Assembly: GCF_016026235.1 (NCBI RefSeq)
Contig: NZ_CP065613.1
Reading direction: 5' to 3' (one strand)
DNA length: 64,000 bases
Source of the DNA: Escherichia coli
GTDB taxonomy: Bacteria > Pseudomonadota > Gammaproteobacteria > Enterobacterales > Enterobacteriaceae
Position 1 is the first letter of the stretch. Each line of letters begins with the position of its first letter. Both the position numbers and the translations under genes were made by a program. The notes below the pieces were generated by a model, which saw only the letters and a program-made list of their open reading frames with translations, was not told the DNA's origin and ran no database searches. Shown here in pieces: positions 9,994 through 52,492 of this stretch.

Positions 9994-11376
9994 ATGTCTC
10001 CTTGTAAACTTCTGCCATTTTGTGTGGCCCTTGCGCTAACCGGTTGTTCACTGGCACCGGATTATCAGCGTCCGGCAATGCCCGTTCCTCAGCAGTTCTC
10101 ACTCAGCCAGAACGGCCTCGTTAACGCAGCAGATAACTATCAGAACGCGGGCTGGCGCACCTTTTTTGTTGATAATCAGGTGAAGACGCTGATTAGCGAG
10201 GCGCTGGAGAATAACCGGGATTTGCGCATGGAGACGCTGAAAGTGCAGGAGGCACGGGCGCAATATCGTCTGACTGATGCCGACCGCTACCCACAGCTCA
10301 ATGGTGAGGGCAGCGGCAGCTGGAGCGGCAATCTTAAAGGCGATTCAGCCACGACGCGGGAGTTTTCTACTGGCCTTAACGCCAGCTTTGACCTCGATTT
10401 TTTCGGGCGCTTAAAGAACATGAGCGAAGCCGAGCGACAAAATTATTTAGCCACTGAGGAAGCTCAGCGCGCGGTGCATATTCTGCTGGTTTCTAATGTC
10501 GCGCAAAGCTATTTCAATCAGCAGCTGGCGTATGCGCAATTGCAAATAGCCGAAGAAACGCTGCGTAATTATCAGCAGTCATATGCGTTTGTCGAAAAAC
10601 AACTGTTGACAGGTAGCAGTAATGTTCTGGCGCTGGAACAGGCTCGCGGGGTGATTGAAAGTACCCGCAGCGACATCGCTAAACGTCAGGGGGAACTGGC
10701 GCAGGCGAATAATGCATTGCAACTGTTATTGGGAAGCTACGGCAAGCTGCCGCAAGCGCAGACAGTAAACGGCGGCAGTCTGCAAAGCGTTAAATTACCG
10801 GCGGGCTTGTCGTCGCAAATCTTATTGCAGCGCCCGGATATTATGGAAGCTGAACACGCGTTAATGGCGGCTAATGCCAATATTGGCGCTGCACGCGCGG
10901 CATTTTTCCCATCTATAAGCCTGACCAGCGGAATATCAACCGCCAGCAGCGATCTGTCGTCATTATTTAACGCCAGCAGCGGGATGTGGAATTTTATTCC
11001 TAAAATTGAGATCCCCATTTTTAATGCCGGACGCAACCAGGCCAATCTGGATATCGCCGAAATTCGCCAGCAGCAGTCGGTGGTGAATTATGAACAGAAA
11101 ATCCAGAACGCCTTTAAAGAAGTGGCAGATGCGCTGGCATTACGTCAAAGCCTGAACGATCAAATTAGCGCCCAGCAGCGTTATCTGGCATCGCTGCAAA
11201 TTACTTTGCAACGGGCGCGGGCATTATATCAGCACGGAGCAGTAAGTTATCTGGAAGTGCTGGATGCCGAGCGTTCGTTATTTGCAACCCGACAAACTTT
11301 ACTTGACCTGAATTATGCCCGTCAGGTTAACGAAATTTCTTTATATACCGCACTTGGTGGCGGTTGGCAGCAATAA
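9994..11376 (+). CDS. cusC: Outer-membrane efflux channel CusC (TolC-like lipoprotein)
   Basis: 460-aa ORF with a lipoprotein signal (LALTGCSLAP); first gene of cusCFBA, divergent from cusRS. Confidence 0.9.
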   Translation: MSPCKLLPFCVALALTGCSLAPDYQRPAMPVPQQFSLSQNGLVNAADNYQNAGWRTFFVDNQVKTLISEALENNRDLRMETLKVQEARAQYRLTDADRYPQLNGEGSGSWSGNLKGDSATTREFSTGLNASFDLDFFGRLKNMSEAERQNYLATEEAQRAVHILLVSNVAQSYFNQQLAYAQLQIAEETLRNYQQSYAFVEKQLLTGSSNVLALEQARGVIESTRSDIAKRQGELAQANNALQLLLGSYGKLPQAQTVNGGSLQSVKLPAGLSSQILLQRPDIMEAEHALMAANANIGAARAAFFPSISLTSGISTASSDLSSLFNASSGMWNFIPKIEIPIFNAGRNQANLDIAEIRQQQSVVNYEQKIQNAFKEVADALALRQSLNDQISAQQRYLASLQITLQRARALYQHGAVSYLEVLDAERSLFATRQTLLDLNYARQVNEISLYTALGGGWQQ

Positions 11377-11399
11377 CTTTTAACTCCAGGAGAGAATAA

Positions 11400-11732
11400 A
11401 TGAAAAAAGCACTGCAAGTCGCAATGTTCAGTCTGTTTACCGTTATTGGCTTTAATGCCCAGGCTAACGAACATCATCATGAAACCATGAGCGAAGCACA
11501 ACCACAGGTCATTAGTGCCACCGGCGTGGTAAAAGGTGTTGATCTGGAAAGCAAAAAAATCACCATCCATCACGATCCGATTGCTGCCGCGAACTGGCCG
11601 GAGATGACCATGCGCTTTACCATCACTCCGCAGACGAAAATGAGTGAAATTAAAACTGGCGACAAAGTGGCGTTTAATTTTGTCCAGCAGGGCAACCTTT
11701 CTTTATTACAGGATATTAAAGTCAGCCAGTAA
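11400..11732 (+). CDS. cusF: Periplasmic Cu(I)/Ag(I) metallochaperone CusF
   Basis: 110-aa ORF with a signal peptide and His/Met-rich mature region. Confidence 0.9.
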   Translation: MKKALQVAMFSLFTVIGFNAQANEHHHETMSEAQPQVISATGVVKGVDLESKKITIHHDPIAAANWPEMTMRFTITPQTKMSEIKTGDKVAFNFVQQGNLSLLQDIKVSQ

Positions 11733-11747
11733 CCCAGGTTTAATGAG

Positions 11748-12971
11748 ATGAAAAAAATCGCGCTTATTATCGGCAGCATGATCGCGGGCGGTATTATTTC
11801 TGCGGCAGGTTTTACCTGGTTTGCAAAGGCTGAACCACCCGCAGAAAAAACGTCGACCGCAGAACGTAAAATCTTATTCTGGTACGACCCGATGTACCCC
11901 AATACGCGGTTCGATAAACCTGGTAAATCGCCGTTTATGGATATGGATCTGGTGCCGAAATATGCCGATGAAGAGAGTTCTGCGTCTGGTGTGCGCATTG
12001 ACCCGACTCAGACGCAGAATCTGGGGGTGAAAACGGCTACCGTCACGCGCGGGCCGCTGGCTTTTGCCCAGAGTTTCCCGGCGAATGTCAGTTACAACGA
12101 GTATCAGTATGCCATTGTGCAGGCTCGCGCCGCCGGGTTTATCGACAAGGTGTATCCGCTTACCGTGGGCGATAAAGTGCAAAAGGGCACACCGCTTCTC
12201 GACCTGACCATTCCCGACTGGGTGGAAGCGCAGAGTGAGTATTTACTGCTGCGCGAAACCGGCGGTACGGCGACCCAGACTGAAGGCATTCTTGAGCGGC
12301 TGCGACTGGCGGGAATGCCGGAGGCGGATATTCGCCGCCTGATCGCCACGCAAAAAATCCAGACTCGCTTTACGCTCAAAGCGCCCATTGATGGCGTGAT
12401 CACCGCGTTTGATCTGCGCGCGGGAATGAATATCGCCAAAGATAACGTGGTAGCGAAAATTCAGGGTATGGACCCGGTGTGGGTCACTGCTGCGATCCCG
12501 GAGTCCATCGCCTGGCTGGTGAAAGATGCCTCGCAGTTTACGCTCACCGTTCCGGCGCGACCTGATAAAACACTCACCATCCGCAAATGGACGCTACTAC
12601 CTGGCGTGGATGCCGCGACCCGCACGCTGCAGCTGCGTCTGGAAGTCGACAACGCCGACGAGGCGCTAAAACCGGGAATGAACGCCTGGTTGCAACTCAA
12701 TACCGCCAGCGAACCGATGCTGCTCATTCCGTCACAGGCGCTGATTGATACCGGCAACGAACAGCGGGTGATTACCGTTGATGCCGACGGGCGCTTTGTA
12801 CCGAAACGCGTTGCCGTTTTCCAGGCATCGCAAGGTGTCACCGCGTTACGCTCTGGTCTGGCGGAAGGTGAAAAGGTGGTTTCCAGCGGCCTGTTCCTGA
12901 TTGATTCCGAAGCCAATATTTCTGGCGCACTGGAGCGGATGCGCTCTGAAAGTGCTACCCATGCGCATTGA
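11748..12971 (+). CDS. cusB: Membrane-fusion (periplasmic adaptor) protein CusB
   Basis: 407-aa ORF between cusF and cusA. Confidence 0.9.
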   Translation: MKKIALIIGSMIAGGIISAAGFTWFAKAEPPAEKTSTAERKILFWYDPMYPNTRFDKPGKSPFMDMDLVPKYADEESSASGVRIDPTQTQNLGVKTATVTRGPLAFAQSFPANVSYNEYQYAIVQARAAGFIDKVYPLTVGDKVQKGTPLLDLTIPDWVEAQSEYLLLRETGGTATQTEGILERLRLAGMPEADIRRLIATQKIQTRFTLKAPIDGVITAFDLRAGMNIAKDNVVAKIQGMDPVWVTAAIPESIAWLVKDASQFTLTVPARPDKTLTIRKWTLLPGVDAATRTLQLRLEVDNADEALKPGMNAWLQLNTASEPMLLIPSQALIDTGNEQRVITVDADGRFVPKRVAVFQASQGVTALRSGLAEGEKVVSSGLFLIDSEANISGALERMRSESATHAH

Positions 12972-22404: not shown

Positions 22405-23698
22405 CTGAGGGATCCCCAGAAAATTTAGTAAACCATTATCATATTGGTATACCGTTGCTGTAGAACTTTCAGCCCTGCGTCAAGTGACAGTGTGTTTAGT
22501 ATGAGTGGAGAATGTCGAATCACATTCTCCGCCAGTTTTAATAACGAGATGACTCGCCTGTGCTTCACTGTATTTGCCTGATATTTATGATGTATCCCTT
22601 TGTTTTCCAGGCTGAAACCGCTTAACCACATAATGATACTGGCTAATGTTGCGATCAGACTCAATACCGTGACCCGCCCGGATGAATGACTGGCACCAAA
22701 CCGTAGTCCAAATCCCCAGCGAGGATTTTTTTCATCCCTGAAATTTTGCTCAATTTGCATTCTACGGCTGTATAATTTCATTACCTGTTTTGGCGAGAAC
22801 TCAGTACTGTTTGTGAAAATAAACCATGGTGATTTCCCGGCAGTACGAGCTTTAGCCGTCACCGATGGTCTGGTTGCTCTTTCCTTCGAGCGTTTAAATC
22901 TACGACCTTTAGGCTTACTTTTATAAAGATAAAAATGCCCTTCATGTTGTGCATTTTTATCTCGACCCAGCAGGCCTTCACCTAAATAAATTGCTGTCGT
23001 TGATGCTTTTGTGCCTGAGTCCGACACCTTTTCCCAGCCATTACCAACATTGTAATAATGATTGCCCAGTACCCGGCAAATATAGGTCCAGCCACGGGAG
23101 CGGAGCTGTTGGAACCATCGCCCCTGAAAACCGGCATCTGTAATAACAATGACATCAGTCCCGGGGGAAAAGCACTCAGCAAGCGATTCCAGAAAACGCT
23201 CATGTACATCTGCATTCGCTGTCTGTGATGATGGAACGACACAACTCATCAACGGTAAAGAACGCCCGTCACATGCCAGGCTTGCCCGCAAAAGCTGAAA
23301 ACGAGAGGCATGATAAGCACTCCAGTCAATGAGTATCACAACACGAGACATTCCCCGCGTAATCTTTTGGGTAATTCGCTGAAAAATGGTGGAAACCTCA
23401 TTTTGCAAATGTCGATTCCCCAACAGTCGATCCACCCGCTTTATTTTGTTTTTAACTGATGCCGTACCGGTTAAATGACGCCCGATACTGGTAAGTGTGA
23501 GGGAAGCGCCATTTATTACAGCATTAGTTGCGTCAATCAGTGATTTTTGACGGTAAAGATGCAAAGGGGCCAGTATATTGTTAAGGAAATTTTGGCATAA
23601 TGAACGTGCAGGCATAGTGGTGATCTCCTTGAAATTGTTAGCACAATCAATTAGATCACATCTCACTATGCCTGTCTTGTTTTCTGGGGATTCCTCAG
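22405..23698 (-). mobile_element. IS4-family insertion sequence, probably IS186 (about 1.29 kb)
   Basis: Imperfect terminal inverted repeats CTGAGGGATCCCCAGAAAA and CTGAGGAATCCCCAGAAAA; flanked by a 10-11 bp direct repeat GAGTAATCCC(C); inserted in a GGGG-N6-CCCC target 22 bp after the hok copy 1 stop; one DDE transposase ORF. Confidence 0.8.
22425..23615 (-). CDS. IS4-family DDE transposase
   Basis: 397 aa from the ATG at 23613-23615 (MPARSLCQNF...). Catalytic-region motifs IDWSA, TDAGF and YSRRMQIEQNFRD resemble IS10-type transposases. The 568-aa ORF in the track is read-through into flanking DNA. Confidence 0.85.
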   Translation of the reverse strand: MPARSLCQNFLNNILAPLHLYRQKSLIDATNAVINGASLTLTSIGRHLTGTASVKNKIKRVDRLLGNRHLQNEVSTIFQRITQKITRGMSRVVILIDWSAYHASRFQLLRASLACDGRSLPLMSCVVPSSQTANADVHERFLESLAECFSPGTDVIVITDAGFQGRWFQQLRSRGWTYICRVLGNHYYNVGNGWEKVSDSGTKASTTAIYLGEGLLGRDKNAQHEGHFYLYKSKPKGRRFKRSKERATRPSVTAKARTAGKSPWFIFTNSTEFSPKQVMKLYSRRMQIEQNFRDEKNPRWGFGLRFGASHSSGRVTVLSLIATLASIIMWLSGFSLENKGIHHKYQANTVKHRRVISLLKLAENVIRHSPLILNTLSLDAGLKVLQQRYTNMIMVY

Positions 23699-23758
23699 GA
23701 GTAATCCCCGCATATCCGGTTGTCAGGTCAGGATGGTAAGGCACCTGCTTTACACTTT

Positions 23759-23796
23759 CGCCCGCGGTCAGTGATGGCTGCGGGCGATTTCGTTTT
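23759..23796 (+). terminator. Stem-loop plus T-rich tract: 3' terminator of the hok copy 1 transcript, displaced by the IS
   Basis: GCCCGCGG / CTGCGGGC stem followed by ATTTCGTTTT. Confidence 0.45.
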
Positions 23797-23823
23797 AAGA
23801 GCAATGATGAGTTTTGCCGACAG

Positions 23824-24290
23824 AAGTCCGAAACAGGACTCACTGTATAAATAAACAGCCATTTTGCTAAGGAAGGGTAAGATAACGGCGGGTGCCTGAA
23901 GCTTTCCGGTTTCAGGTTAACTCTGAGGTCTGGAAAGATGAAGCCCCAGGAGATATTTCTATCAATCCTGGGGCTGCCACTCCGAGCCTCAACAACTCGG
24001 ATGGTAGTCCCTTCTTCGCATGGAGGCAATATAAACATGCTGACGAAATATGCCCTTGTGGCAGTCATAGTGCTGTGTTTGACGGTGCTGGGATTTACGC
24101 TTCTGGTCGGAGAGTCGCTGTGTGAGTTCACCGTAAAGGAACGTAATATTGAGTTTAAGGCTGTTCTCGCTTACGAACCGAAGAAGTAGTCGTTGTGCGG
24201 GGAGCAATCCCCGCATATCCGGTTGTCAGGTCAGAGTGGTAAGGCACCTGCTTTACACTTTCGCCCGCAGTCAGTGATGGCTGCGGGCGA
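23824..24290 (+). repeat. hok-type locus, tandem copy 2 (uninterrupted)
   Basis: Aligns to copy 1 and to the displaced copy 1 3' end at 23699-23796, including the terminal hairpin at 24263-24289. Confidence 0.75.
24037..24189 (+). CDS. Hok-family type I toxin (50 aa), copy 2
   Basis: [50 protein letters not shown]; differs from copy 1 at two residues (D/E and R/K). Confidence 0.8.
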
Positions 24291-33105: not shown

Positions 33106-34239
33106 ATGTCATCACTGAATATTAAACAGGGAAGTGACGCTCATTTTCCCGATTATCCTCTGGCGTCGCCCAGTAATAATGAAATTGATTTACTTAATCT
33201 AATCTCAGTTTTATGGCGGGCCAAAAAAACGGTCATGGCGGTCGTTTTTGCGTTTGCCTGCGCAGGCTTGCTGATCTCTTTCATCCTGCCGCAAAAATGG
33301 ACCAGCGCGGCGGTTGTCACGCCTCCAGAACCTGTTCAGTGGCAAGAGTTGGAGAAAACATTCACTAAGCTTCGTGTGCTGGATCTGGATATCAAAATTG
33401 ATCGTACAGAAGCATTTAACCTGTTTATCAAGAAGTTTCAGTCGGTTAGCTTGCTGGAAGAGTACCTGCGTTCATCACCTTATGTGATGGACCAATTAAA
33501 AGAGGCGAAAATCGACGAACTGGATTTGCATCGCGCAATTGTCGCATTGAGCGAAAAAATGAAAGCGGTTGATGACAATGCCAGTAAGAAAAAAGATGAA
33601 CCGTCACTGTATACCTCCTGGACGCTAAGTTTTACCGCGCCAACCAGTGAAGAGGCGCAGACCGTTTTGAGCGGGTATATCGATTATATCTCTGCGTTGG
33701 TGGTGAAAGAGTCGATAGAAAACGTCCGTAATAAACTGGAGATCAAAACCCAGTTTGAAAAAGAAAAACTGGCTCAGGACCGCATTAAAATGAAAAATCA
33801 ACTTGATGCAAACATTCAGCGCCTCAATTATTCACTCGACATTGCCAACGCGGCAGGAATTAAAAAGCCCGTTTACAGTAATGGTCAGGCCGTTAAAGAT
33901 GACCCCGATTTCTCTATTTCTCTCGGCGCAGACGGTATTGAACGCAAACTGGAAATTGAAAAAGCGGTCACTGACGTTGCGGAACTGAACGGTGAATTAC
34001 GTAATCGTCAGTATCTTGTTGAGCAGTTAACAAAAGCAAATATCAACGATGTGAATTTTACGCCGTTTAAATATCAGTTAAGCCCGTCATTGCCAGTGAA
34101 AAAAGACGGTCCGGGTAAGGCGATTATTGTGATCCTTTCCGCGCTGATCGGCGGGATGGTGGCTTGTGGTAGCGTGTTATTGCGCTATGCGATGGCATCC
34201 AGAAAACAGGATGCCATGATGGCAGACCACTTAGTTTAA
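33106..34239 (+). CDS. fepE: Polysaccharide co-polymerase (Wzz-family) FepE
   Basis: 377-aa ORF with N- and C-terminal transmembrane segments. Confidence 0.9.
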   Translation: MSSLNIKQGSDAHFPDYPLASPSNNEIDLLNLISVLWRAKKTVMAVVFAFACAGLLISFILPQKWTSAAVVTPPEPVQWQELEKTFTKLRVLDLDIKIDRTEAFNLFIKKFQSVSLLEEYLRSSPYVMDQLKEAKIDELDLHRAIVALSEKMKAVDDNASKKKDEPSLYTSWTLSFTAPTSEEAQTVLSGYIDYISALVVKESIENVRNKLEIKTQFEKEKLAQDRIKMKNQLDANIQRLNYSLDIANAAGIKKPVYSNGQAVKDDPDFSISLGADGIERKLEIEKAVTDVAELNGELRNRQYLVEQLTKANINDVNFTPFKYQLSPSLPVKKDGPGKAIIVILSALIGGMVACGSVLLRYAMASRKQDAMMADHLV

Positions 34240-35051
34240 CTATTTGCGGTTGAAGGTGCCGTTCGTCCGAGCGGCACCACGAGCGGCGTTCCGGCTACCG
34301 GATCGTCAATGATCATGCAGCGGAGACCATAAATGCGCTCAATCAGTTCAGCAGTGACAATCTCCTTCGGCGCTCCCTGAGCAACAATTTTCCCTTCTCG
34401 CAATGCAATCAAATGGCTGGCGTAACGACAGGCCTGATTAAGATCGTGCAGCACCGCCGCCAGGGTATAGCCTTTCTCGCGGTTCAGTTCGCTTAACAGT
34501 TCCAGCAAATCAATCTGATGACTGATATCCAGCCAGGTCGTGGGTTCGTCGAGCAGCATAATTGCCGTTTCCTGGGCCAGCACCATCGCGATCCACGCTC
34601 GCTGGCGTTGCCCACCGGAAAGGGTATCCACGCTTTGATCTGCCAGATGAGTTATTCCCGTGGCCTGCATCGCTTTCGTTACCGCTTCTTCATCCTCTTT
34701 GCGCCAGCGGGTAAACAGCGGTTGATGCGGGTAACGTCCACGCGCCACCAGCTCCTGCACGGTGATATCTCCCGGCGTGGTAGCATTCTGCACCAACAGA
34801 CCAATCCGGCGTGCAACCTCTTTACTGGCGTAATGTTGAATGTGCTCGCCATCCAGCCAGACATGCCCATGAGCAGGCGTCATCAGGCGGCTTAAGGTAC
34901 GCAGTAACGTGGATTTACCGCAGCCATTTGGCCCGATAATTGCCGTGAAGTGACCATCAGGTATTTCTACAGTCAGATTTTCCGCAACGGTATATTTGCC
35001 ATATCCGAGGGTTAACTGTTCGCCGCGCAAACGGGCTACTGATTCGGTCAT
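34236..35051 (-). CDS. fepC: Ferric enterobactin ABC transporter ATPase FepC
   Basis: 271-aa reading from MTESVARLRG... with Walker A GPNGCGKST and signature LSGGQRQR. Confidence 0.9.
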   Translation of the reverse strand: MTESVARLRGEQLTLGYGKYTVAENLTVEIPDGHFTAIIGPNGCGKSTLLRTLSRLMTPAHGHVWLDGEHIQHYASKEVARRIGLLVQNATTPGDITVQELVARGRYPHQPLFTRWRKEDEEAVTKAMQATGITHLADQSVDTLSGGQRQRAWIAMVLAQETAIMLLDEPTTWLDISHQIDLLELLSELNREKGYTLAAVLHDLNQACRYASHLIALREGKIVAQGAPKEIVTAELIERIYGLRCMIIDDPVAGTPLVVPLGRTAPSTANS

Positions 35052-36040: not shown

Positions 36041-37041
36041 GCACCACCTCGCGTTTTACGTCGCACGAGGAAGATCAGCACCGGTGCACCAATAAACGCA
36101 CTGACCACAGAAACGCGCAGTTCACCGGGCACAATCACCCGCCCGATGATATCGGCAAACAGCAGCAGGGCAGGGGTAGCAAGTAGCGTGACGGGCAGCG
36201 ACCAGCGATGATCGGCACCCACCAGCCAACGCGCCATATGCGGCATCATCAGGCCAATAAAGGCAATCGGGCCAACTACTGCCGTCGCACTACCACAAAG
36301 CACGGTAATCGCCAGCAGACCAATCAACTGTGTGCGCGCCACGCGACTGCCCAGCGCCGTCGCGGTGTCACTGCCGAGGCTCAAACTGTTCAGCGCGCGA
36401 CTCAGTAATAGCGCAGTTGCTCCGGCGATCAGCACCGGGATCAGCACCACCTTTAAGGTATGTAGATTGCGAATATCCAGCGAACCGGCTTGCCAGAAAC
36501 GCAGTTGATCGTAGACGTCAGGATTAAGCAGGGCTATGCCGCTGGTCAGCCCTTCCAGCACCGCCGCCAGCGCCACGCCCGCCAGGGTTAAACGCACCGG
36601 ACTTAACTGCCCGCCGCCCTGGCTGCCGGTAAAGGCAACAATCAACGAGGCCACCAGCGCCCCGGCGAAGGCCATCGCCAGTTGTTCCTGTGCGGAAGAG
36701 TAACCAAACAGCGCCGCACCCAGCACAATGGCAAAGCTGGCTCCGGCGTTCACGCCAAGCAAGCCGGGGTCGGCAAGTGGGTTTCGGGTGAGGGTTTGCA
36801 TTAACGCCCCGGCAAGGCCAAGCGCGCCGCCTGCCAGTAAACCGGCAAGGGTGCGCGGCAGTCGCGCGTCAAGCACGATGGTGCAGTCGGCGCTCTGGCA
36901 GGTGCCGGAGAGCGCCTCCAGCACTACGGAAGCGGGGAGTGATTTTGCCCCAATGAGCAGGCTTAATGCCGTCGCGATAATCAGTAATAACAGCAATCCG
37001 GGCACGGCAATGGCGCGTGTCACGGCAACAGAACCAGACAT
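36037..37041 (-). CDS. fepD: Ferric enterobactin ABC transporter permease FepD
   Basis: 334-aa reading from MSGSVAVTRA...; its stop overlaps the fepG start (ATGA). Confidence 0.9.
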   Translation of the reverse strand: MSGSVAVTRAIAVPGLLLLLIIATALSLLIGAKSLPASVVLEALSGTCQSADCTIVLDARLPRTLAGLLAGGALGLAGALMQTLTRNPLADPGLLGVNAGASFAIVLGAALFGYSSAQEQLAMAFAGALVASLIVAFTGSQGGGQLSPVRLTLAGVALAAVLEGLTSGIALLNPDVYDQLRFWQAGSLDIRNLHTLKVVLIPVLIAGATALLLSRALNSLSLGSDTATALGSRVARTQLIGLLAITVLCGSATAVVGPIAFIGLMMPHMARWLVGADHRWSLPVTLLATPALLLFADIIGRVIVPGELRVSVVSAFIGAPVLIFLVRRKTRGGA

Positions 37042-37053
37042 ACGAACTTCCAT

Positions 37054-37081
37054 GATAATGAAATTAATTATCGTTATCGAT
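37054..37081. promoter_or_regulatory. Fur box in the divergent fepD / entS promoter region
   Basis: GATAATGAAATTAATTATCGTTATCGAT, a close match to the GATAATGATAATCATTATC consensus. Confidence 0.65.
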
Positions 37082-37151
37082 CTTATTTGGATATGTTAGC
37101 ATGTGCAGCCTAAGAATAGGTATTTAAAATATTTGATGGCAAGGCATTGTA

Positions 37152-38402
37152 ATGAATAAACAATCCTGGCTGCTTAACCTCAGCCTGTTGAAAACGCACC
37201 CGGCGTTTCGCGCAGTATTCCTCGCTCGTTTCATCTCTATTGTTTCTCTGGGTTTGCTCGGCGTCGCGGTGCCGGTGCAGATCCAGATGATGACACATTC
37301 CACCTGGCAGGTGGGGCTTTCGGTGACGCTGACCGGCGGCGCGATGTTTGTTGGCCTGATGGTCGGCGGTGTGCTGGCGGATCGCTATGAGCGCAAAAAA
37401 GTGATTTTGCTGGCGCGCGGCACCTGTGGCATTGGCTTCATTGGACTGTGCCTGAACGCGCTGCTGCCGGAGCCGTCATTGCTGGCAATCTATTTACTTG
37501 GTTTATGGGATGGTTTTTTCGCATCGCTTGGCGTTACGGCGCTATTGGCGGCGACACCAGCACTGGTAGGGCGTGAAAACTTAATGCAGGCCGGGGCGAT
37601 CACCATGTTGACCGTGCGTCTGGGGTCGGTGATTTCGCCCATGATTGGCGGTTTATTGCTGGCGACCGGTGGCGTAGCCTGGAACTACGGGCTGGCGGCG
37701 GCGGGCACGTTTATTACCTTGCTACCGTTGTTAAGCCTTCCGGCGTTGCCACCGCCACCACAGCCGCGCGAGCATCCGTTGAAATCATTACTGGCAGGAT
37801 TTCGTTTTCTGCTCGCCAGCCCGCTGGTAGGAGGGATTGCGTTGCTGGGTGGTTTATTGACGATGGCGAGCGCGGTGCGGGTACTGTATCCGGCGCTGGC
37901 TGACAACTGGCAGATGTCGGCGGCACAGATTGGTTTTCTCTATGCGGCGATCCCGCTCGGTGCGGCTATTGGCGCGTTAACCAGCGGGAAGCTGGCACAT
38001 AGCGCGCGACCAGGGTTATTGATGCTGCTCTCCACGCTGGGATCGTTCCTCACCATTGGTCTGTTTGGCCTGATGCCGATGTGGATTTTAGGCGTGGTTT
38101 GTCTGGCGCTGTTCGGCTGGCTGAGCGCGGTTAGTTCGTTGCTGCAATATACAATGCTGCAAACGCAAACTCCGGAAGCGATGTTAGGGCGGATTAACGG
38201 TTTGTGGACGGCGCAAAACGTGACGGGCGATGCCATAGGCGCGGCGCTGCTGGGCGGTTTGGGCGCGATGATGACACCGGTTGCTTCCGCAAGCGCAAGC
38301 GGTTTTGGTTTGTTGATTATCGGCGTGTTGTTATTGCTGGTGCTGGTGGAGTTGCGACGTTTTCGCCAGACGCCGCCGCAGGTGACAGCGTCCGACAGTT
38401 AA
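37152..38402 (+). CDS. entS: Enterobactin exporter EntS (MFS)
   Basis: 416-aa ORF with 12 predicted transmembrane segments. Confidence 0.9.
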
Positions 38403-38405
38403 TGC

Positions 38406-39362
38406 TTAAAACAGCGCCTTAAGCCGTTCCAGCACTTGCATGGCGCTGTAGTAATCCAGACGGAACGTCTCGGTTCCCAGCGCATAAACCTGCTTGTTTT
38501 GTACTGCGGGCAGGTGCGCGAGCAGTGGATTGGCATAAATCGCATCGGCATCTTTCTGATCACCAGCGAACAGGAATAGCGATTCACCGTTTAACCCAGC
38601 AGCCAGATTTTCCCCACCAAGCTGAATGATGTCATGGCGTTTACCCTGGCTTTGGCTGGCATTTAACCCTGCGGGTAACTTCGCCAGCGTAAAGCCGAGT
38701 TGTTCCAGCATCTGCCCTTGTGCTGATTCCGGCGTCCAGAGATTGGCACTGTGTGCAGCGGCGGTATAGACAATGGCAGTGACCGGCTGCGGCGGTAATT
38801 TGATTTGCTCTTTCGCCGCGGCCAGTTGCTTATCAAACTGCGCAATCCGCTCTGCCGCTTGTTTCTCATGCCCGGTAATTTCGCCAAGTTGCGTTAACAG
38901 CGCCTGCCAGCTTTTGTCGTCGTAATTGATGATTAATGTCGGGGCGATGGTGGAAAGCTGATCATACAGTGCCAGCGCCGAATCGCCGCCGGTTGCGCTA
39001 ATTAAAATCAGATCCGGCATTTGCGCGGCAACGGCTTCGGCGCTCGGTTCGCCGATATAGAGCCGTTGCAGTTTGCGTTCTTTCGCCACCTTGCTCCACT
39101 GGCGTAAAAAGCCCTGGTCATCCGCGACGCGGTTATTCGGCGTGGTCGCGCCGCTGGCGATCACCGGAACATCAATCGCCAGCAGTGAGCCGGTCAGGGT
39201 GACGCTGGTGGAAACAATACGCTGCGGCTGGCTTTCCAGGGTATGAATGCCACGGCTGTCAGTAATCTGACGCGGCCAGTCGGCGGCCTGAACTGCGGCT
39301 ATTCCTGAAAGCAAAAGTCCTGTTAATAGAAGGGCGTTGCGGTAGAGCGGGGCGAGTCTCAC
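38406..39362 (-). CDS. fepB: Periplasmic ferric enterobactin-binding protein FepB
   Basis: 318-aa ORF with a signal peptide; convergent with entS. Confidence 0.9.
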
Positions 39363-39502
39363 AAATCAGCTTCCTGTTATTAATGAAGTTAATGCTTCTC
39401 ATTTTCATTGTAACCACAACCAGATGCAACCCCGAGTTGCAGATTGCGTTACCTCAAGAGTTGACATAGTGCGCGTTTGCTTTTAGGTTAGCGACCGAAA
39501 AT

Positions 39503-39523
39503 ATAAATGATAATCATTATTAA
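39503..39523. promoter_or_regulatory. Fur box in the divergent fepB / entC promoter region
   Basis: ATAAATGATAATCATTATTAA, a near-consensus Fur box. Confidence 0.7.
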
Positions 39524-39550
39524 AGCCTTTATCATTTTGTGGAGGATGAT

Positions 39551-40726
39551 ATGGATACGTCACTGGCTGAGGAAGTACAGCAGACCATGGCAACACTTGC
39601 GCCCAATCGCTTTTTCTTTATGTCGCCGTACCGCAGTTTTACGACGTCAGGATGTTTCGCCCGCTTCGATGAACCGGCTGTGAACGGGGATTCGCCCGAC
39701 AGTCCCTTCCAGCAAAAACTCGCCGCGCTGTTTGCCGATGCCAAAGCGCAGGGCATCAAAAATCCGGTGATGGTTGGGGCGATTCCCTTCGATCCACGTC
39801 AGCCTTCGTCGCTGTATATTCCCGAATCCTGGCAGTCGTTCTCCCGTCAGGAAAAACAAGCTTCCGCACGCCGTTTCACCCGCAGCCAGTTGCTGAATGT
39901 GGTGGAACGTCAGGCAATTCCGGAACAAACCACGTTTGAACAGATGGTTGCCCGCGCCGCCGCACTTACCGCCACGCCGCAGGTCGACAAAGTGGTGTTG
40001 TCACGGTTGATTGATATCACCACTGACGCCGCCATTGATAGTGGCGTATTGCTGGAACGGTTGATTGCGCAAAACCCAGTTAGTTACAACTTCCATGTGC
40101 CGTTGGCAGATGGTGGCGTTCTGCTGGGGGCCAGCCCGGAACTGCTGCTACGTAAAGACGGCGAGCGTTTTAGCTCCATTCCGTTAGCCGGTTCCGCGCG
40201 TCGTCAGCCGGATGAAGTGCTCGATCGCGAAGCGGGTAATCGTCTGCTGGCGTCAGAAAAAGATCGCCATGAACATGAACTGGTGACTCAGGCGATGAAA
40301 GAGGTACTGCGCGAACGCAGTAGTGAGTTACACGTTCCCTCCTCTCCACAATTGATTACCACGCCGACGCTGTGGCATCTCGCAACTCCCTTTGAAGGTA
40401 AAGCGAATTCGCAAGAAAACGCACTGACTCTGGCCTGTCTGCTGCATCCGACCCCCGCGCTGAGCGGTTTCCCGCATCAGGCCGCGACCCAGGTTATTGC
40501 TGAACTGGAACCGTTCGACCGCGAACTGTTTGGCGGCATTGTGGGTTGGTGTGACAGCGAAGGTAACGGCGAATGGGTGGTGACCATCCGTTGCGCGAAG
40601 CTGCGGGAAAATCAGGTGCGCCTGTTTGCCGGAGCGGGGATTGTGCCTGCGTCGTCACCGTTGGGTGAGTGGCGCGAAACAGGCGTCAAACTTTCTACCA
40701 TGTTGAACGTTTTTGGATTGCATTAA
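39551..40726 (+). CDS. entC: Isochorismate synthase EntC
   Basis: 391-aa reading from [11 protein letters not shown]... (the track ORF starts four codons upstream). Confidence 0.9.
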
Positions 40727-47044: not shown

Positions 47045-47053
47045 ATTTGCACG

Positions 47054-51380: not shown

Positions 51381-52283
51381 TCAAAAACTCTCATTTAGAC
51401 GGTCAATAAATCGGGAGAACACCAAATTATTTAAAGAAGATTTATTATAGGAAATGTAAAGCTTTATTGAAGGTAACGGATGTTCTAGTTTTATCTCTTT
51501 TAAATTAAGAAAGTCACGGTGGGAGTTATAAAGTTCATAGGGGACTATTCCCAGTAAATCTGTAACTGCAATGCTATTAATTATTGTCAGCAAAGAGGAA
51601 CCACGAAATGAAATTTTGCGATTCATAAACTTCTCGTCTATTTCCATTTGAATATCATCAACTCCTGCTGATTTGGATATTAATTGGGTGAACTCTTCTG
51701 CCATAATTTGTTCATAAGTGCTATTGTCAGTAATTCGCGGATGCTTATTACTACAAATTAGAGTATTGCGAATTGTATGCAATGGCATGCAAATGACGGA
51801 ACGGCTGATCACTGGCATTTGGGTGATCACCAGATCGGCTTTGCGGTGAACCAACAGTTCTTCAGCATTCTCTGCTGACATGAGGATATCATGGCACTCA
51901 ATCTCGACAGAGGCATCTTGCCGTAGGCAGCGGATCAGCATACTATTATTAGAGCAAGAAATGAGCTGAGGGCCGTAGATAATAAAGTTTTTCTTTAGTT
52001 CGGACTTATTGACTATATTAATTGTTTGTTCAAGGCCTTTGAGGTTTTTCTCAAGATGGTGATGCAGATTCAACCCTGTTGTCGTCGGCGCGATACCTTT
52101 TCCTGAGCGAATGAATAAAGGGTCATTAAATTGCGCACGTAAGCGTTGTAACGACTGGCTCACGGCTGATGGGGTGATATATAGTGATTCAGCAGCTTTG
52201 CTAATGCTTAAATGCTGGTAAATACACTCAAATATGACAAGAAGATTTAAGTCGAACTTTTTCAAGTCGTAGAGATTGGCCAT
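51381..52283 (-). CDS. ybdO: LysR-type transcriptional regulator YbdO
   Basis: 300-aa ORF with an N-terminal LysR helix-turn-helix region; the coding sequence is conspicuously AT-rich. Confidence 0.8.
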   Translation of the reverse strand: MANLYDLKKFDLNLLVIFECIYQHLSISKAAESLYITPSAVSQSLQRLRAQFNDPLFIRSGKGIAPTTTGLNLHHHLEKNLKGLEQTINIVNKSELKKNFIIYGPQLISCSNNSMLIRCLRQDASVEIECHDILMSAENAEELLVHRKADLVITQMPVISRSVICMPLHTIRNTLICSNKHPRITDNSTYEQIMAEEFTQLISKSAGVDDIQMEIDEKFMNRKISFRGSSLLTIINSIAVTDLLGIVPYELYNSHRDFLNLKEIKLEHPLPSIKLYISYNKSSLNNLVFSRFIDRLNESF

Positions 52284-52492
52284 ACACTACTCCGGTTATA
52301 TTTTTCTTCCATGATATATTCACTTAATCAATGTTTTTTTGCGTATATATTTTTATTGATTATGTTTTTTTGCTTAACTCAGGATTAAGTTTTTCTAAAA
52401 TAGCACAGCCACTTAGGGCAGAGCGAGCAATTCATGCTTTTTTAGGATGGTTGAAAAGCAGAGATATAGTTCAACCATCCATGAATTACCTT

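Follow-up and report, generated by a model that had tools for sequence, protein, structure and literature searches.

The convergent entS-fepB junction of Escherichia coli as a compact gene boundary with a candidate fepB 3'-end stem-loop inside the entS coding sequence

The convergent genes entS and fepB, the stop codons of which lie 3 nt apart in a 64,000-nt stretch of Escherichia coli DNA (from contig NZ_CP065613.1; the whole stretch is referred to below as the window), rather probably form an ordinary compact junction of co-regulated genes, in which the EntS tail reads through a stem-loop of the fepB 3' end and the overlap of the two transcripts is a tolerated by-product of gene packing. The tail, about 10 poorly constrained codons, would span a stem-loop that acts as RNA on the opposite strand, at the 3' end of the fepB mRNA. 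The junction seems to have neither spacer nor terminator because the entS frame closes only 3 nt short of the fepB stop. As for the overlap itself, it is most likely a consequence of how the genes are packed and not a regulatory switch.

EntS scored 714.7 bits against the NCBIfam equivalog NF007792 (cutoff, 324), and FepB scored 514.6 bits against NF008200, the equivalog of the Fe-enterobactin substrate-binding protein (cutoff, 205). The entS stop is a TAA at 38400-38402 and the fepB stop a TAA whose reverse complement occupies 38406-38408, the letters at 38390-38412 being gtccgacagt TAA tgc TTA aaac. The RefSeq annotation of a strain identical over the window has the same 3-nt spacing, as does that of K-12 MG1655 (entS, 622300..623550; fepB, complement of 623554..624510). 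The convergent arrangement and the 3-nt distance, both claimed in the first-pass annotation, are thus borne out by the sequence, the open reading frames and the K-12 annotation. With stops this close, any 3' UTR must run into the coding region of the partner. The further claim that the transcripts overlap at their 3' ends agrees with this geometry and with a published RNA-seq listing of the pair (PMC12288877, see below). Fur-box-like sites were found in the two divergent promoter regions (Table 1); the best in the fepD-entS region matches 16 of 19 positions at 37054-37072, and the one in the fepB-entC region overlaps promoter-like hexamers on both strands. When Fur repression is lifted, entS and fepB are switched on jointly, and the cell needs both products at once.

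Table 1. Features of the entS-fepB junction and of the flanking promoter regions (positions in the window).
Feature	Position	Strand	Basis
Fur-box-like sites, fepD-entS divergent promoter region	37054..37078		16/19 and 15/19 matches to GATAATGATAATCATTATC
entS CDS, 416 aa, MFS enterobactin exporter	37152..38402	+	open reading frame list; NCBIfam NF007792; RefSeq annotation of identical strain
C-rich, G-poor fepB-sense tract, candidate Rho loading region	38286..38363	-	base composition; function putative
Stem-loop, 14 bp with 6-nt loop, candidate fepB 3'-end structure (protective hairpin or pause site)	38364..38397	-	folding; comparison
Spacer TGC, 3 nt, separating the entS and fepB stops	38403..38405		sequence; K-12; relatives
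fepB CDS, 318 aa, periplasmic ferric-enterobactin binding protein	38406..39362	-	open reading frame list; NCBIfam NF008200; RefSeq annotation
Region past the entS stop, antisense to fepB 3' coding sequence, two local hairpins	38411..38519	+	folding; weak functional evidence
Fur-box-like sites, fepB-entC divergent promoter region	39497..39527		15/19 match at 39503-39521

Tight convergence is common in this part of the genome. Six of about 11 convergent junctions in the window have at most 9 nt between the open reading frames: fepE/fepC (-4), ybdL/ybdM (0), one junction of 2 nt, ybdR'/yldA (3), entS/fepB (3) and ybdD/hcxA (9); the remaining five gaps measure 42-120 nt. The entS/fepB spacing is within this local base rate and has nothing unusual about it. 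Overlap at 3' ends is likewise the norm for convergent operons of E. coli, having been detected by RNA-seq in 276 of 370 (75%) with a mean length of 286 nt (Conway et al., 2014, PMC4161252), so that overlap alone is no sign of regulation. For this pair it has already been catalogued: the MG1655 "excludome" obtained with ExcludonFinder (Sanmartin et al., NAR 2025, PMC12288877) counts entS-fepB among 165 convergent pairs that show transcript overlap in no fewer than 50% of 58 MG1655 RNA-seq sets, and it singles the two genes out by name for their functional link; the 3-nt spacing itself has stood in the K-12 annotation for decades. Judged from geometry and the literature, entS/fepB has the overlapping transcripts that characterize a convergent excludon.

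A scan for canonical intrinsic terminators over 36900-39700 returned 4 terminator-like sites against 4.1 expected, none of them near the junction. After the fepB-sense hairpin comes GAAAACGUCGCAAC on the - strand, and the + strand continues with AGUUAAUGCUUAAAAC; neither provides a U tract. The junction has no hairpin plus U tract of the kind that defines an intrinsic (Rho-independent) terminator, and to this extent the earlier statement that no terminator separates the genes was right; it overlooked the conserved fepB-sense stem-loop at 38364-38397 and the C-rich tract that follows. A search of 37000-39700 against Rfam at an E-value of at most 1 gave no match. In the Term-seq data tabulated by Adams et al. 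(2021), from cultures that were not iron-limited, no 3' end falls within K-12 positions 623200-623799; the names of the two genes are absent from the four supplementary files of that study except for fepB in file 3, and the table of Rho regions among them (file 2; iron-replete cultures) mentions neither entS nor fepB. Neither gene is mentioned in the SMRT-Cappable-seq and TERMITe supplements.

The fepB-sense stem-loop starts 8 nt past the fepB stop and lies within entS codons 405-416, the last 12 of the gene. A 61-nt segment of the - strand folded at -26.7 kcal/mol, of which the hairpin itself accounts for -23.4 (z = -4.35); the + strand at the same site folded at -15.3 kcal/mol (z = -0.71). 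The z-score depends on the folded frame, falling from -4.35 in the 61-nt frame to -1.21 in a 76-nt frame, and the argument therefore rests on ranking across the window and on comparative data. Among about 42,600 40-nt windows of the 64 kb, the stem-loop is among the most stable 0.06% and the most strand-asymmetric 0.03%. In 7 sequences from Escherichia and Superficieibacter, pairing is kept in 94.9% of cells on the - strand versus 67.3% on the + strand, with slid controls giving 39-62%. Two base pairs show compensatory changes and five show one-sided changes that preserve pairing through G-U; the sample comprises no more than 7 distinct sequences of two clades, and the covariation score was attained in 5 of 500 shuffles. 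The one-sided substitutions all preserve pairing on one strand only, and the compensatory changes occur between genera whose EntS tails differ at 5-6 of 10 residues. One Superficieibacter sequence keeps the stem only in part. In Escherichia albertii the corresponding element forms a perfect palindrome of 13 bp, and either strand can fold (-26.3 and -31.9 kcal/mol). Within E. coli, 5,396 of 5,426 complete genomes (~99.4%) contain the 61-mer spanning the junction at no less than 95% identity, with a median of 1 place per genome. The neighbouring pair fepE/fepC, which overlaps by 4 nt, also has strong hairpins inside the coding sequence of the partner (z = -4.3 and -3.4), so the layout recurs locally.

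The protein encoded across the stem-loop appears to be under little constraint. The conserved part of EntS ends at the motif ELRRFRQ (about 38369), after which some 10 codons remain. E. albertii EntS carries 4 changes in these last 10 residues versus 5 in the 406 residues before them (Fisher p = 2e-5), and the tails of Superficieibacter EntS show excess divergence as well (p = 0.004 and 0.0007). Beyond these two genera the tail after RRFRQ is unrelated. In four loci (L014, L040, L042 and L071) the entS frame continues directly into a REP or BoxC element, which indicates that the tail is unconstrained. We read these patterns as suggesting that the EntS tail evolves as an opposite-strand RNA, not as a protein.

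Past the hairpin, the fepB-sense strand at 38365..38286 contains 28 C and 13 G residues, a C/G ratio of 2.15 that is the highest of the 80-nt windows scanned downstream. On the opposite strand, this tract encodes the last transmembrane segment of EntS. The antisense strand of entS as a whole has a C/G ratio of 1.34; C-richness is in part general to the antisense strand of a membrane-protein gene.

In the mechanism that we infer for fepB, polymerase passes the stop codon and the hairpin and goes on to make C-rich, G-poor RNA that is antisense to entS and is not translated; Rho would load on this C-rich tract and terminate the transcript; 3'-5' exonucleases would then trim back to the hairpin, which would both set and protect the mature 3' end. 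We likewise infer that the overlap brings no regulatory coupling of the two genes. On the other side, two local hairpins lie past the entS stop on the + strand, at 38411-38449 (-15.8 kcal/mol, z = -2.1) and 38480-38519 (-21.8 kcal/mol, z = -2.7), both followed by no U tract. We considered whether the fepB coding sequence might contain a terminator for entS and rejected this: the helix at 38488-38515 is unconserved across 77 species (67.5% paired on the + strand, 57.8% on the -). The outer helix of these hairpins was rejected too, its pairing across the 77 species being strand-symmetric and explained by the coding sequence. Transcripts of entS would enter fepB antisense sequence that offers no conserved structure, and they probably end diffusely through Rho, polymerase collision or both. 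With both transcripts running into the antisense of the partner, the two RNAs overlap, as published.

The junction varies widely among relatives. Convergence of entS and fepB is present in all 78 Enterobacteriaceae loci having both genes; the distance between them varies over the 78 species from -28 to +648 nt. The 3-nt spacing recurs in E. albertii, E. whittamii, an Escherichia sp. and Superficieibacter, and outside Escherichia and Superficieibacter it is conserved in only a few lineages. Salmonella, Citrobacter, Enterobacter, Klebsiella, Raoultella and others have REP-like or BoxC-like palindromes at the junction, and some other genera have unique palindromes there; REP elements are present in ~30% of E. 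coli convergent intergenic regions. Even within E. coli, 27 genomes, strains Z1322HEC0005 and EC1515 among them, carry a BoxC type-A insertion of ~86 bp at the junction (77 nt stop-to-stop). A 181-nt query that bears this BoxC, together with its entS and fepB flanks, hit a median of 8 places per genome, and its core is identical to the TMECO type-A consensus. The variable gap and the tolerated BoxC insertions argue against any function that needs direct abutment of the two genes. We considered whether the Escherichia stem-loop is itself a copy of REP or BoxC (PIT/TMECO) and rejected this, since it is single-copy.

The segment from the LRRF motif to the fepB stop (median, 85 nt) is structured in most of 65 species folded, typically at -25 to -60 kcal/mol. 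The short junctions of several genera (loci L072, L074, L078 and L081) have little structure (-6 to -14 kcal/mol), so a hairpin is not universally required. A general structural bias towards the fepB-sense strand was not found across genera: the mean strand difference was 0.00 kcal/mol, with 29 species favouring the - strand and 36 the + strand (Wilcoxon p = 0.89). Strand asymmetry is thus a property of the Escherichia/Superficieibacter hairpin alone.

The strand asymmetry bears directly on the possibility that the stem-loop is a collision-type bidirectional terminator, which would pause polymerases arriving from both sides so that a head-on collision at a fixed point frees both transcripts with neither Rho nor a U tract. 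We consider this rather unlikely. A hairpin with no U tract does sit exactly at the convergent boundary of two genes whose promoters fire under the same condition, and the published model depends on a stem-loop of this sort to fix where polymerases collide (Wang et al., bioRxiv 10.1101/2022.10.23.513370); the E. albertii palindrome, folding on both strands, also fits. A two-way pause element should, however, persist on both strands, and conservation on one strand counts against it: in E. coli the entS-sense fold is weak (about -15 kcal/mol, z = -0.7), and pairing is kept at 67% on the + strand versus 95% on the -. By predicted folding, a stem-loop that forms from both directions is absent from E. 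coli and is seen only in E. albertii.

A second alternative holds that no functional element exists, the palindrome being a product of chance or a relic (for example, of an old repeat), the gap a result of genome compaction, and termination diffuse on both sides. The short unstructured junctions of some genera, the frame dependence of the z-score, the small comparative sample and the lack of a mapped 3' end at the junction in the iron-replete Term-seq data of Adams et al. (2021) are all in line with it. Against it stand the extreme ranks of the stem-loop in both stability (top 0.06%) and strand asymmetry (top 0.03%) among the ~42,600 windows, the one-sided substitutions that keep pairing on a single strand, and compensatory changes made despite divergent tails; we regard it as quite unlikely.

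The first-pass annotation had also raised transcriptional interference or antisense pairing, which would make the pair a regulatory excludon: the 3' overlaps would interfere, through collision or RNase III cleavage of the duplex, and thereby couple or trade off exporter and uptake levels. The overlap is published and its authors point to the functional link, convergence holds in all 78 loci, and the junction is nearly fixed in E. coli. Such a role is nevertheless very doubtful. Joint Fur de-repression and simultaneous need, which the Fur-box-like sites and established knowledge both indicate, are the opposite of mutually exclusive expression, and fepB already has a post-transcriptional regulator of its own in RyhB, which acts at the fepB Shine-Dalgarno sequence. 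The gap of -28 to +648 nt and the tolerance of REP and BoxC insertions, including those in 27 E. coli genomes, speak against it as well, as does the overlap of 75% of convergent operons with no known consequence (PMC4161252). The excludome authors could not validate convergent excludons by p19 dsRNA capture (PMC12288877); the p19 supplement (PMC7373196) gives only gene-level values for ybdA and fepB, which are uninformative on the pair. That the stem-loop, set in a dispensable entS tail, is a selected dual-use element, positioning collisions or antisense pairing under iron starvation so as to couple exporter and binding-protein output at the 3' ends, with lineage-specific REP/BoxC insertions retuning it, we hold to be highly improbable.

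For genome scans, the compact junction proposed here carries a caution, in that the look of "no spacer, no terminator" can come from an open reading frame that reads through the 3' structure of the other gene. As matters stand it has little weight for siderophore biology. Should the hairpin prove to determine the fepB 3' end, it would offer a clear natural case in which a protective stem-loop of the Rho type lies inside the coding sequence of a partner, and a handle with which to test the cost of 3' overlap between co-induced genes.

Several known systems resemble this junction. REP and BoxC/PIT repeats are likewise palindromes between convergent genes, and the Escherichia hairpin differs in being single-copy and outside those families. 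Bidirectional terminators, of which Ju et al. in 2019 reportedly mapped 306, are also hairpins at convergent boundaries. Like those of Ju et al. and of Wang et al., the entS-fepB hairpin does not look like an intrinsic terminator; unlike them, it is one-stranded in E. coli (-23.4 versus about -15 kcal/mol) and conserved on one strand. The dnaQ-rnhA and ilvA-ilvY pairs and the pattern described by Conway et al. (2014; PMC4161252) likewise have complementary 3' ends arising from convergent operons; we see no essential difference from either, and entS/fepB is a further instance. The excludome entry (PMC12288877) concerns the same pair, and its main text contains neither an anatomy of entS-fepB nor an interference test; beyond it, the present analysis adds the fepB-sense stem-loop inside entS, the conservation of that stem-loop with a bias to one strand, and the variability of the junction across genera. 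The closest parallel to the proposed fepB 3' end is the class of Rho-dependent 3' ends described by Dar & Sorek (NAR 2018, PMC6061677), in which a stable stem-loop lacks a U tract and is directly followed by a rut site. By its predicted fold, the fepB transcript would have such a stable stem-loop with no U-rich tail near the stop codon, and by its composition the C-rich, G-poor region directly downstream would be rut-like, so that stop, stem-loop and tract follow one another in the same order. Unlike the ends of that class, the predicted fepB structure lies not in an intergenic 3' UTR but inside the coding sequence of its convergent partner.

entS, encoding the enterobactin exporter, and fepB, encoding the ferric-enterobactin binding protein, are arranged tail to tail, and both ORFs match their NCBIfam equivalogs far above the cutoff. 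The junction reads ...gacagt TAA tgc TTA aaacag..., placing the entS stop at 38400-38402 and the fepB stop at 38406-38408, exactly the 3-nt separation described in the first-pass annotation. The same annotation is found in K-12 MG1655 (entS 622300..623550, fepB complement 623554..624510). Strain FDAARGOS_943 is 100% identical to the window across 37900-38900, and a search of complete E. coli genomes recovered the 61-nt junction at ≥95% identity in 5,396 out of 5,426. Fur-box-like sites are contained in both divergent promoter regions flanking the pair. The first-pass annotation also deduced that the two transcripts overlap. In the MG1655 catalogue of ExcludonFinder (NAR 2025, PMC12288877), entS-fepB is one of 165 convergent "excludons", a label given to pairs with transcript overlap in 50% or more of 58 RNA-seq samples, and the text names the two genes as functionally interdependent. 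The deduction is thus supported and already in the literature; entS-fepB is a known, catalogued convergent overlapping pair. Also on that list are ybdL-ybdM, ybdR-yldA and ybdD-hcxA, tight pairs of this window.

The 3-nt layout is not unusual. Convergent gaps were taken from the identical strain's RefSeq annotation; besides the tight junctions tabulated here, the window holds five more with gaps of 42-120 nt. Conway et al. reported complementary 3' ends from 276 of 370 convergent operons, with a mean overlap of 286 nt (PMC4161252), and E. coli is counted as having about 704 convergent pairs, 207 of them with REP, and 306 mapped bidirectional terminators (bioRxiv 10.64898/2026.03.23.713779). 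At fepE/fepC, folding revealed a strong hairpin just past each stop and inside the coding sequence of the partner; the + strand hairpin is GGUGCCGUUCGUCCGAGCGGCACC (z -4.30), the - strand one AUGGCAUCC...GGAUGCCAU (z -3.41). A tight junction with partner-embedded hairpins is therefore a local habit.

Features of the entS/fepB junction and the tight convergent junctions of the window
Feature	Position	Strand	Description
entS ORF	37152..38402	+	NCBIfam EntS equivalog
fepB ORF	38406..39362	-	NCBIfam FepB equivalog
Stem-loop	38364-38397	- (fepB-sense)	14-bp stem, 6-nt loop; from folding downstream of the fepB stop
fepE/fepC	34166-34309 (overlap 34236-34239)		gap -4 nt
ybdL/ybdM	49411/49412		gap 0 nt
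fimZ/sfmF fragment	5495-5496		gap 2 nt
ybdR pseudogene (ybdR')/yldA	58262-58264		gap 3 nt
entS/fepB	38403-38405		gap 3 nt
ybdD/hcxA	47045-47053		gap 9 nt

The junction had been described as lacking a terminator. A consensus scan indeed detected no hairpin-plus-U-tract terminator near it, but a fepB-sense stem-loop, starting 8 nt after the fepB stop within the last entS codons, had been overlooked. In a 61-nt frame it folds at -26.7 kcal/mol (z = -4.35), a value reached by none of 200 shuffles, whereas the complementary entS-sense RNA, weakened by C-A mismatches on the + strand where the - strand has four G-U pairs, reaches just -15.3 kcal/mol (z = -0.71). The z-score depends on the frame, falling to -1.21 in a 76-nt frame; the hairpin was therefore ranked against every 40-nt window of the 64 kb on both strands, where it lies in the top 0.06% for stability (-23.4 kcal/mol) and the top 0.03% for strand asymmetry (-12.6 kcal/mol). 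It is single-copy per genome, matches no Rfam family and is followed by no U tract; the 80 nt directly 3' of it (C=28, G=13) are the most C-rich, G-poor stretch found downstream. The most stable 40-nt folds of the window are at 23749, 24253 and 59206 (+ strand; -26 to -28 kcal/mol), the first two within or adjoining the ISEc60/entD region. The window strain has been remodelled by several IS elements: one IS1 (~11116-11813) borders cusF and an nfrA truncated at its 5' end, and by comparison with K-12 gene order nfrB-cusS-cusR-cusC appears to be deleted; a second IS1 (~51618-52315) interrupts citR, IS5 (~4547-5391) interrupts sfmF and ISEc60 (~22928-24118) adjoins hokE.

A scan based on EntS, with a single genome for each species, yielded 80 loci; in all 78 with both genes, entS and fepB are convergent. 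The ORF-to-ORF gap ranges from -28 to +648 nt, commonly 40-100 nt, and measures 3 nt in Escherichia (coli, albertii, whittamii, sp.), two Superficieibacter species and one further enterobacterium. REP-like, BoxC-like or unique palindromes occupy the spacer in Salmonella, Citrobacter, Enterobacter, Klebsiella, Raoultella, Kluyvera and others, and at loci L014, L040, L042 and L071 the entS ORF runs directly into such a repeat. EntS conservation extends to ...ELRRFRQ, beyond which the sequences are unrelated. One typical enterobacterial locus, with EntS 81% identical to that of E. coli, is labelled Chryseobacterium sp. 18061 (L041, CACSKA010000002.1), an assembly that is therefore probably mislabelled or contaminated; the 'Citrobacter freundii' M-21 locus (L081) is just 76% identical, compared with 91-93% for other Citrobacter.

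Across Escherichia and Superficieibacter the stem-loop folds at -17.9 to -31.9 kcal/mol in the fepB sense and at -11.3 to -26.3 kcal/mol on the other strand. In an alignment of seven distinct sequences, 94.9% of cells are paired on the - strand versus 67.3% on the + strand and 39-62% in slid controls, and the observed score was reached by 5 of 500 shuffles; one Superficieibacter sequence keeps the upper stem only. Two pairs show two-sided changes, and five show one-sided changes that G-U pairing absorbs; on the + strand none do so. The EntS tail diverges much faster than the remaining protein: E. albertii has four changes in the last 10 residues and five in the other 406 (p = 2e-5), with corresponding p values of 0.004 and 0.0007 in Superficieibacter. 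On the simplest reading, drawn from few independent lineages, it is the fepB-strand RNA and not the EntS protein that is constrained over this stretch.

We propose that fepB transcription would continue beyond the hairpin into untranslated entS-antisense RNA, where Rho would end it, and that exonucleases would then shorten the RNA back to the stem. On the entS side, the fepB-antisense region is just mildly C-rich and showed no conserved structure in the cross-species comparison, and the entS 3' end is probably diffuse. In cultures that were not iron-limited, Adams et al. (2021) tabulated no RNA 3' end at K-12 623200-623799, and the names entS and fepB are absent from their table of Rho regions.

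Alternatively, the stem-loop could position head-on meetings of converging polymerases, a model partly compatible with the Rho proposal; the perfect palindrome of the E. albertii version suits it, and the E. coli hairpin, biased to one strand, fits it less well. That the abutment has a dedicated role in regulation, through the putative interference between transcripts raised in the first-pass annotation, is disfavoured by the evolutionary lability of the gap, by a junction insertion of ~86 bp that leaves 77 nt between the stops in 27 of 5,426 E. coli genomes, by the co-induction of entS and fepB, which are not alternatives, by the RyhB control already existing at the fepB Shine-Dalgarno sequence, and by the similar layout of the neighbouring fepE/fepC.

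This insertion (L001 2004-2080 in E. coli Z1322HEC0005, equivalent to window 38403-38405) lies exactly at the junction. Reverse-complemented, its core CCCCTCACCCTAACCCTCTCCCCAAAGGGGCGAGGG gives the BoxC/PIT/TMECO type-A triplex-motif repeat consensus; FepB is extended to 322 aa and the entS-embedded hairpin stays intact. The fepB leader of K-12 MG1655 carries a ~186-bp insertion that consists of BoxC/TMECO repeats 7 and 8 of PMC4666352 Table 1 and brings the fepB-entC intergenic region to 374 bp (L002 5512-5885) versus 188 bp in the window strain (39363-39550). In published Term-seq data, K-12 has an abundant RNA 3' end, classed as 'orphan', at 624680 (-); it precedes TMECO number 8 by 4 nt and lies 170 nt upstream of the fepB ORF. 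Attenuation or processing of the fepB leader may therefore occur in K-12 in a manner impossible for the window strain.

The Rho and trimming sequence proposed for fepB derives from its anatomy, which is shared with the 3' ends described by Dar & Sorek (PMC6061677). In their data, Rho-dependent transcripts have their steady-state 3' ends at protective stem-loops that rut sites closely follow; fepB likewise has a post-stop stem-loop that lacks a U tract and has C-rich, G-poor sequence immediately 3' of it. The embedded stem-loop adds modestly to what is known, as a further candidate case of an already described type of 3'-end structure.
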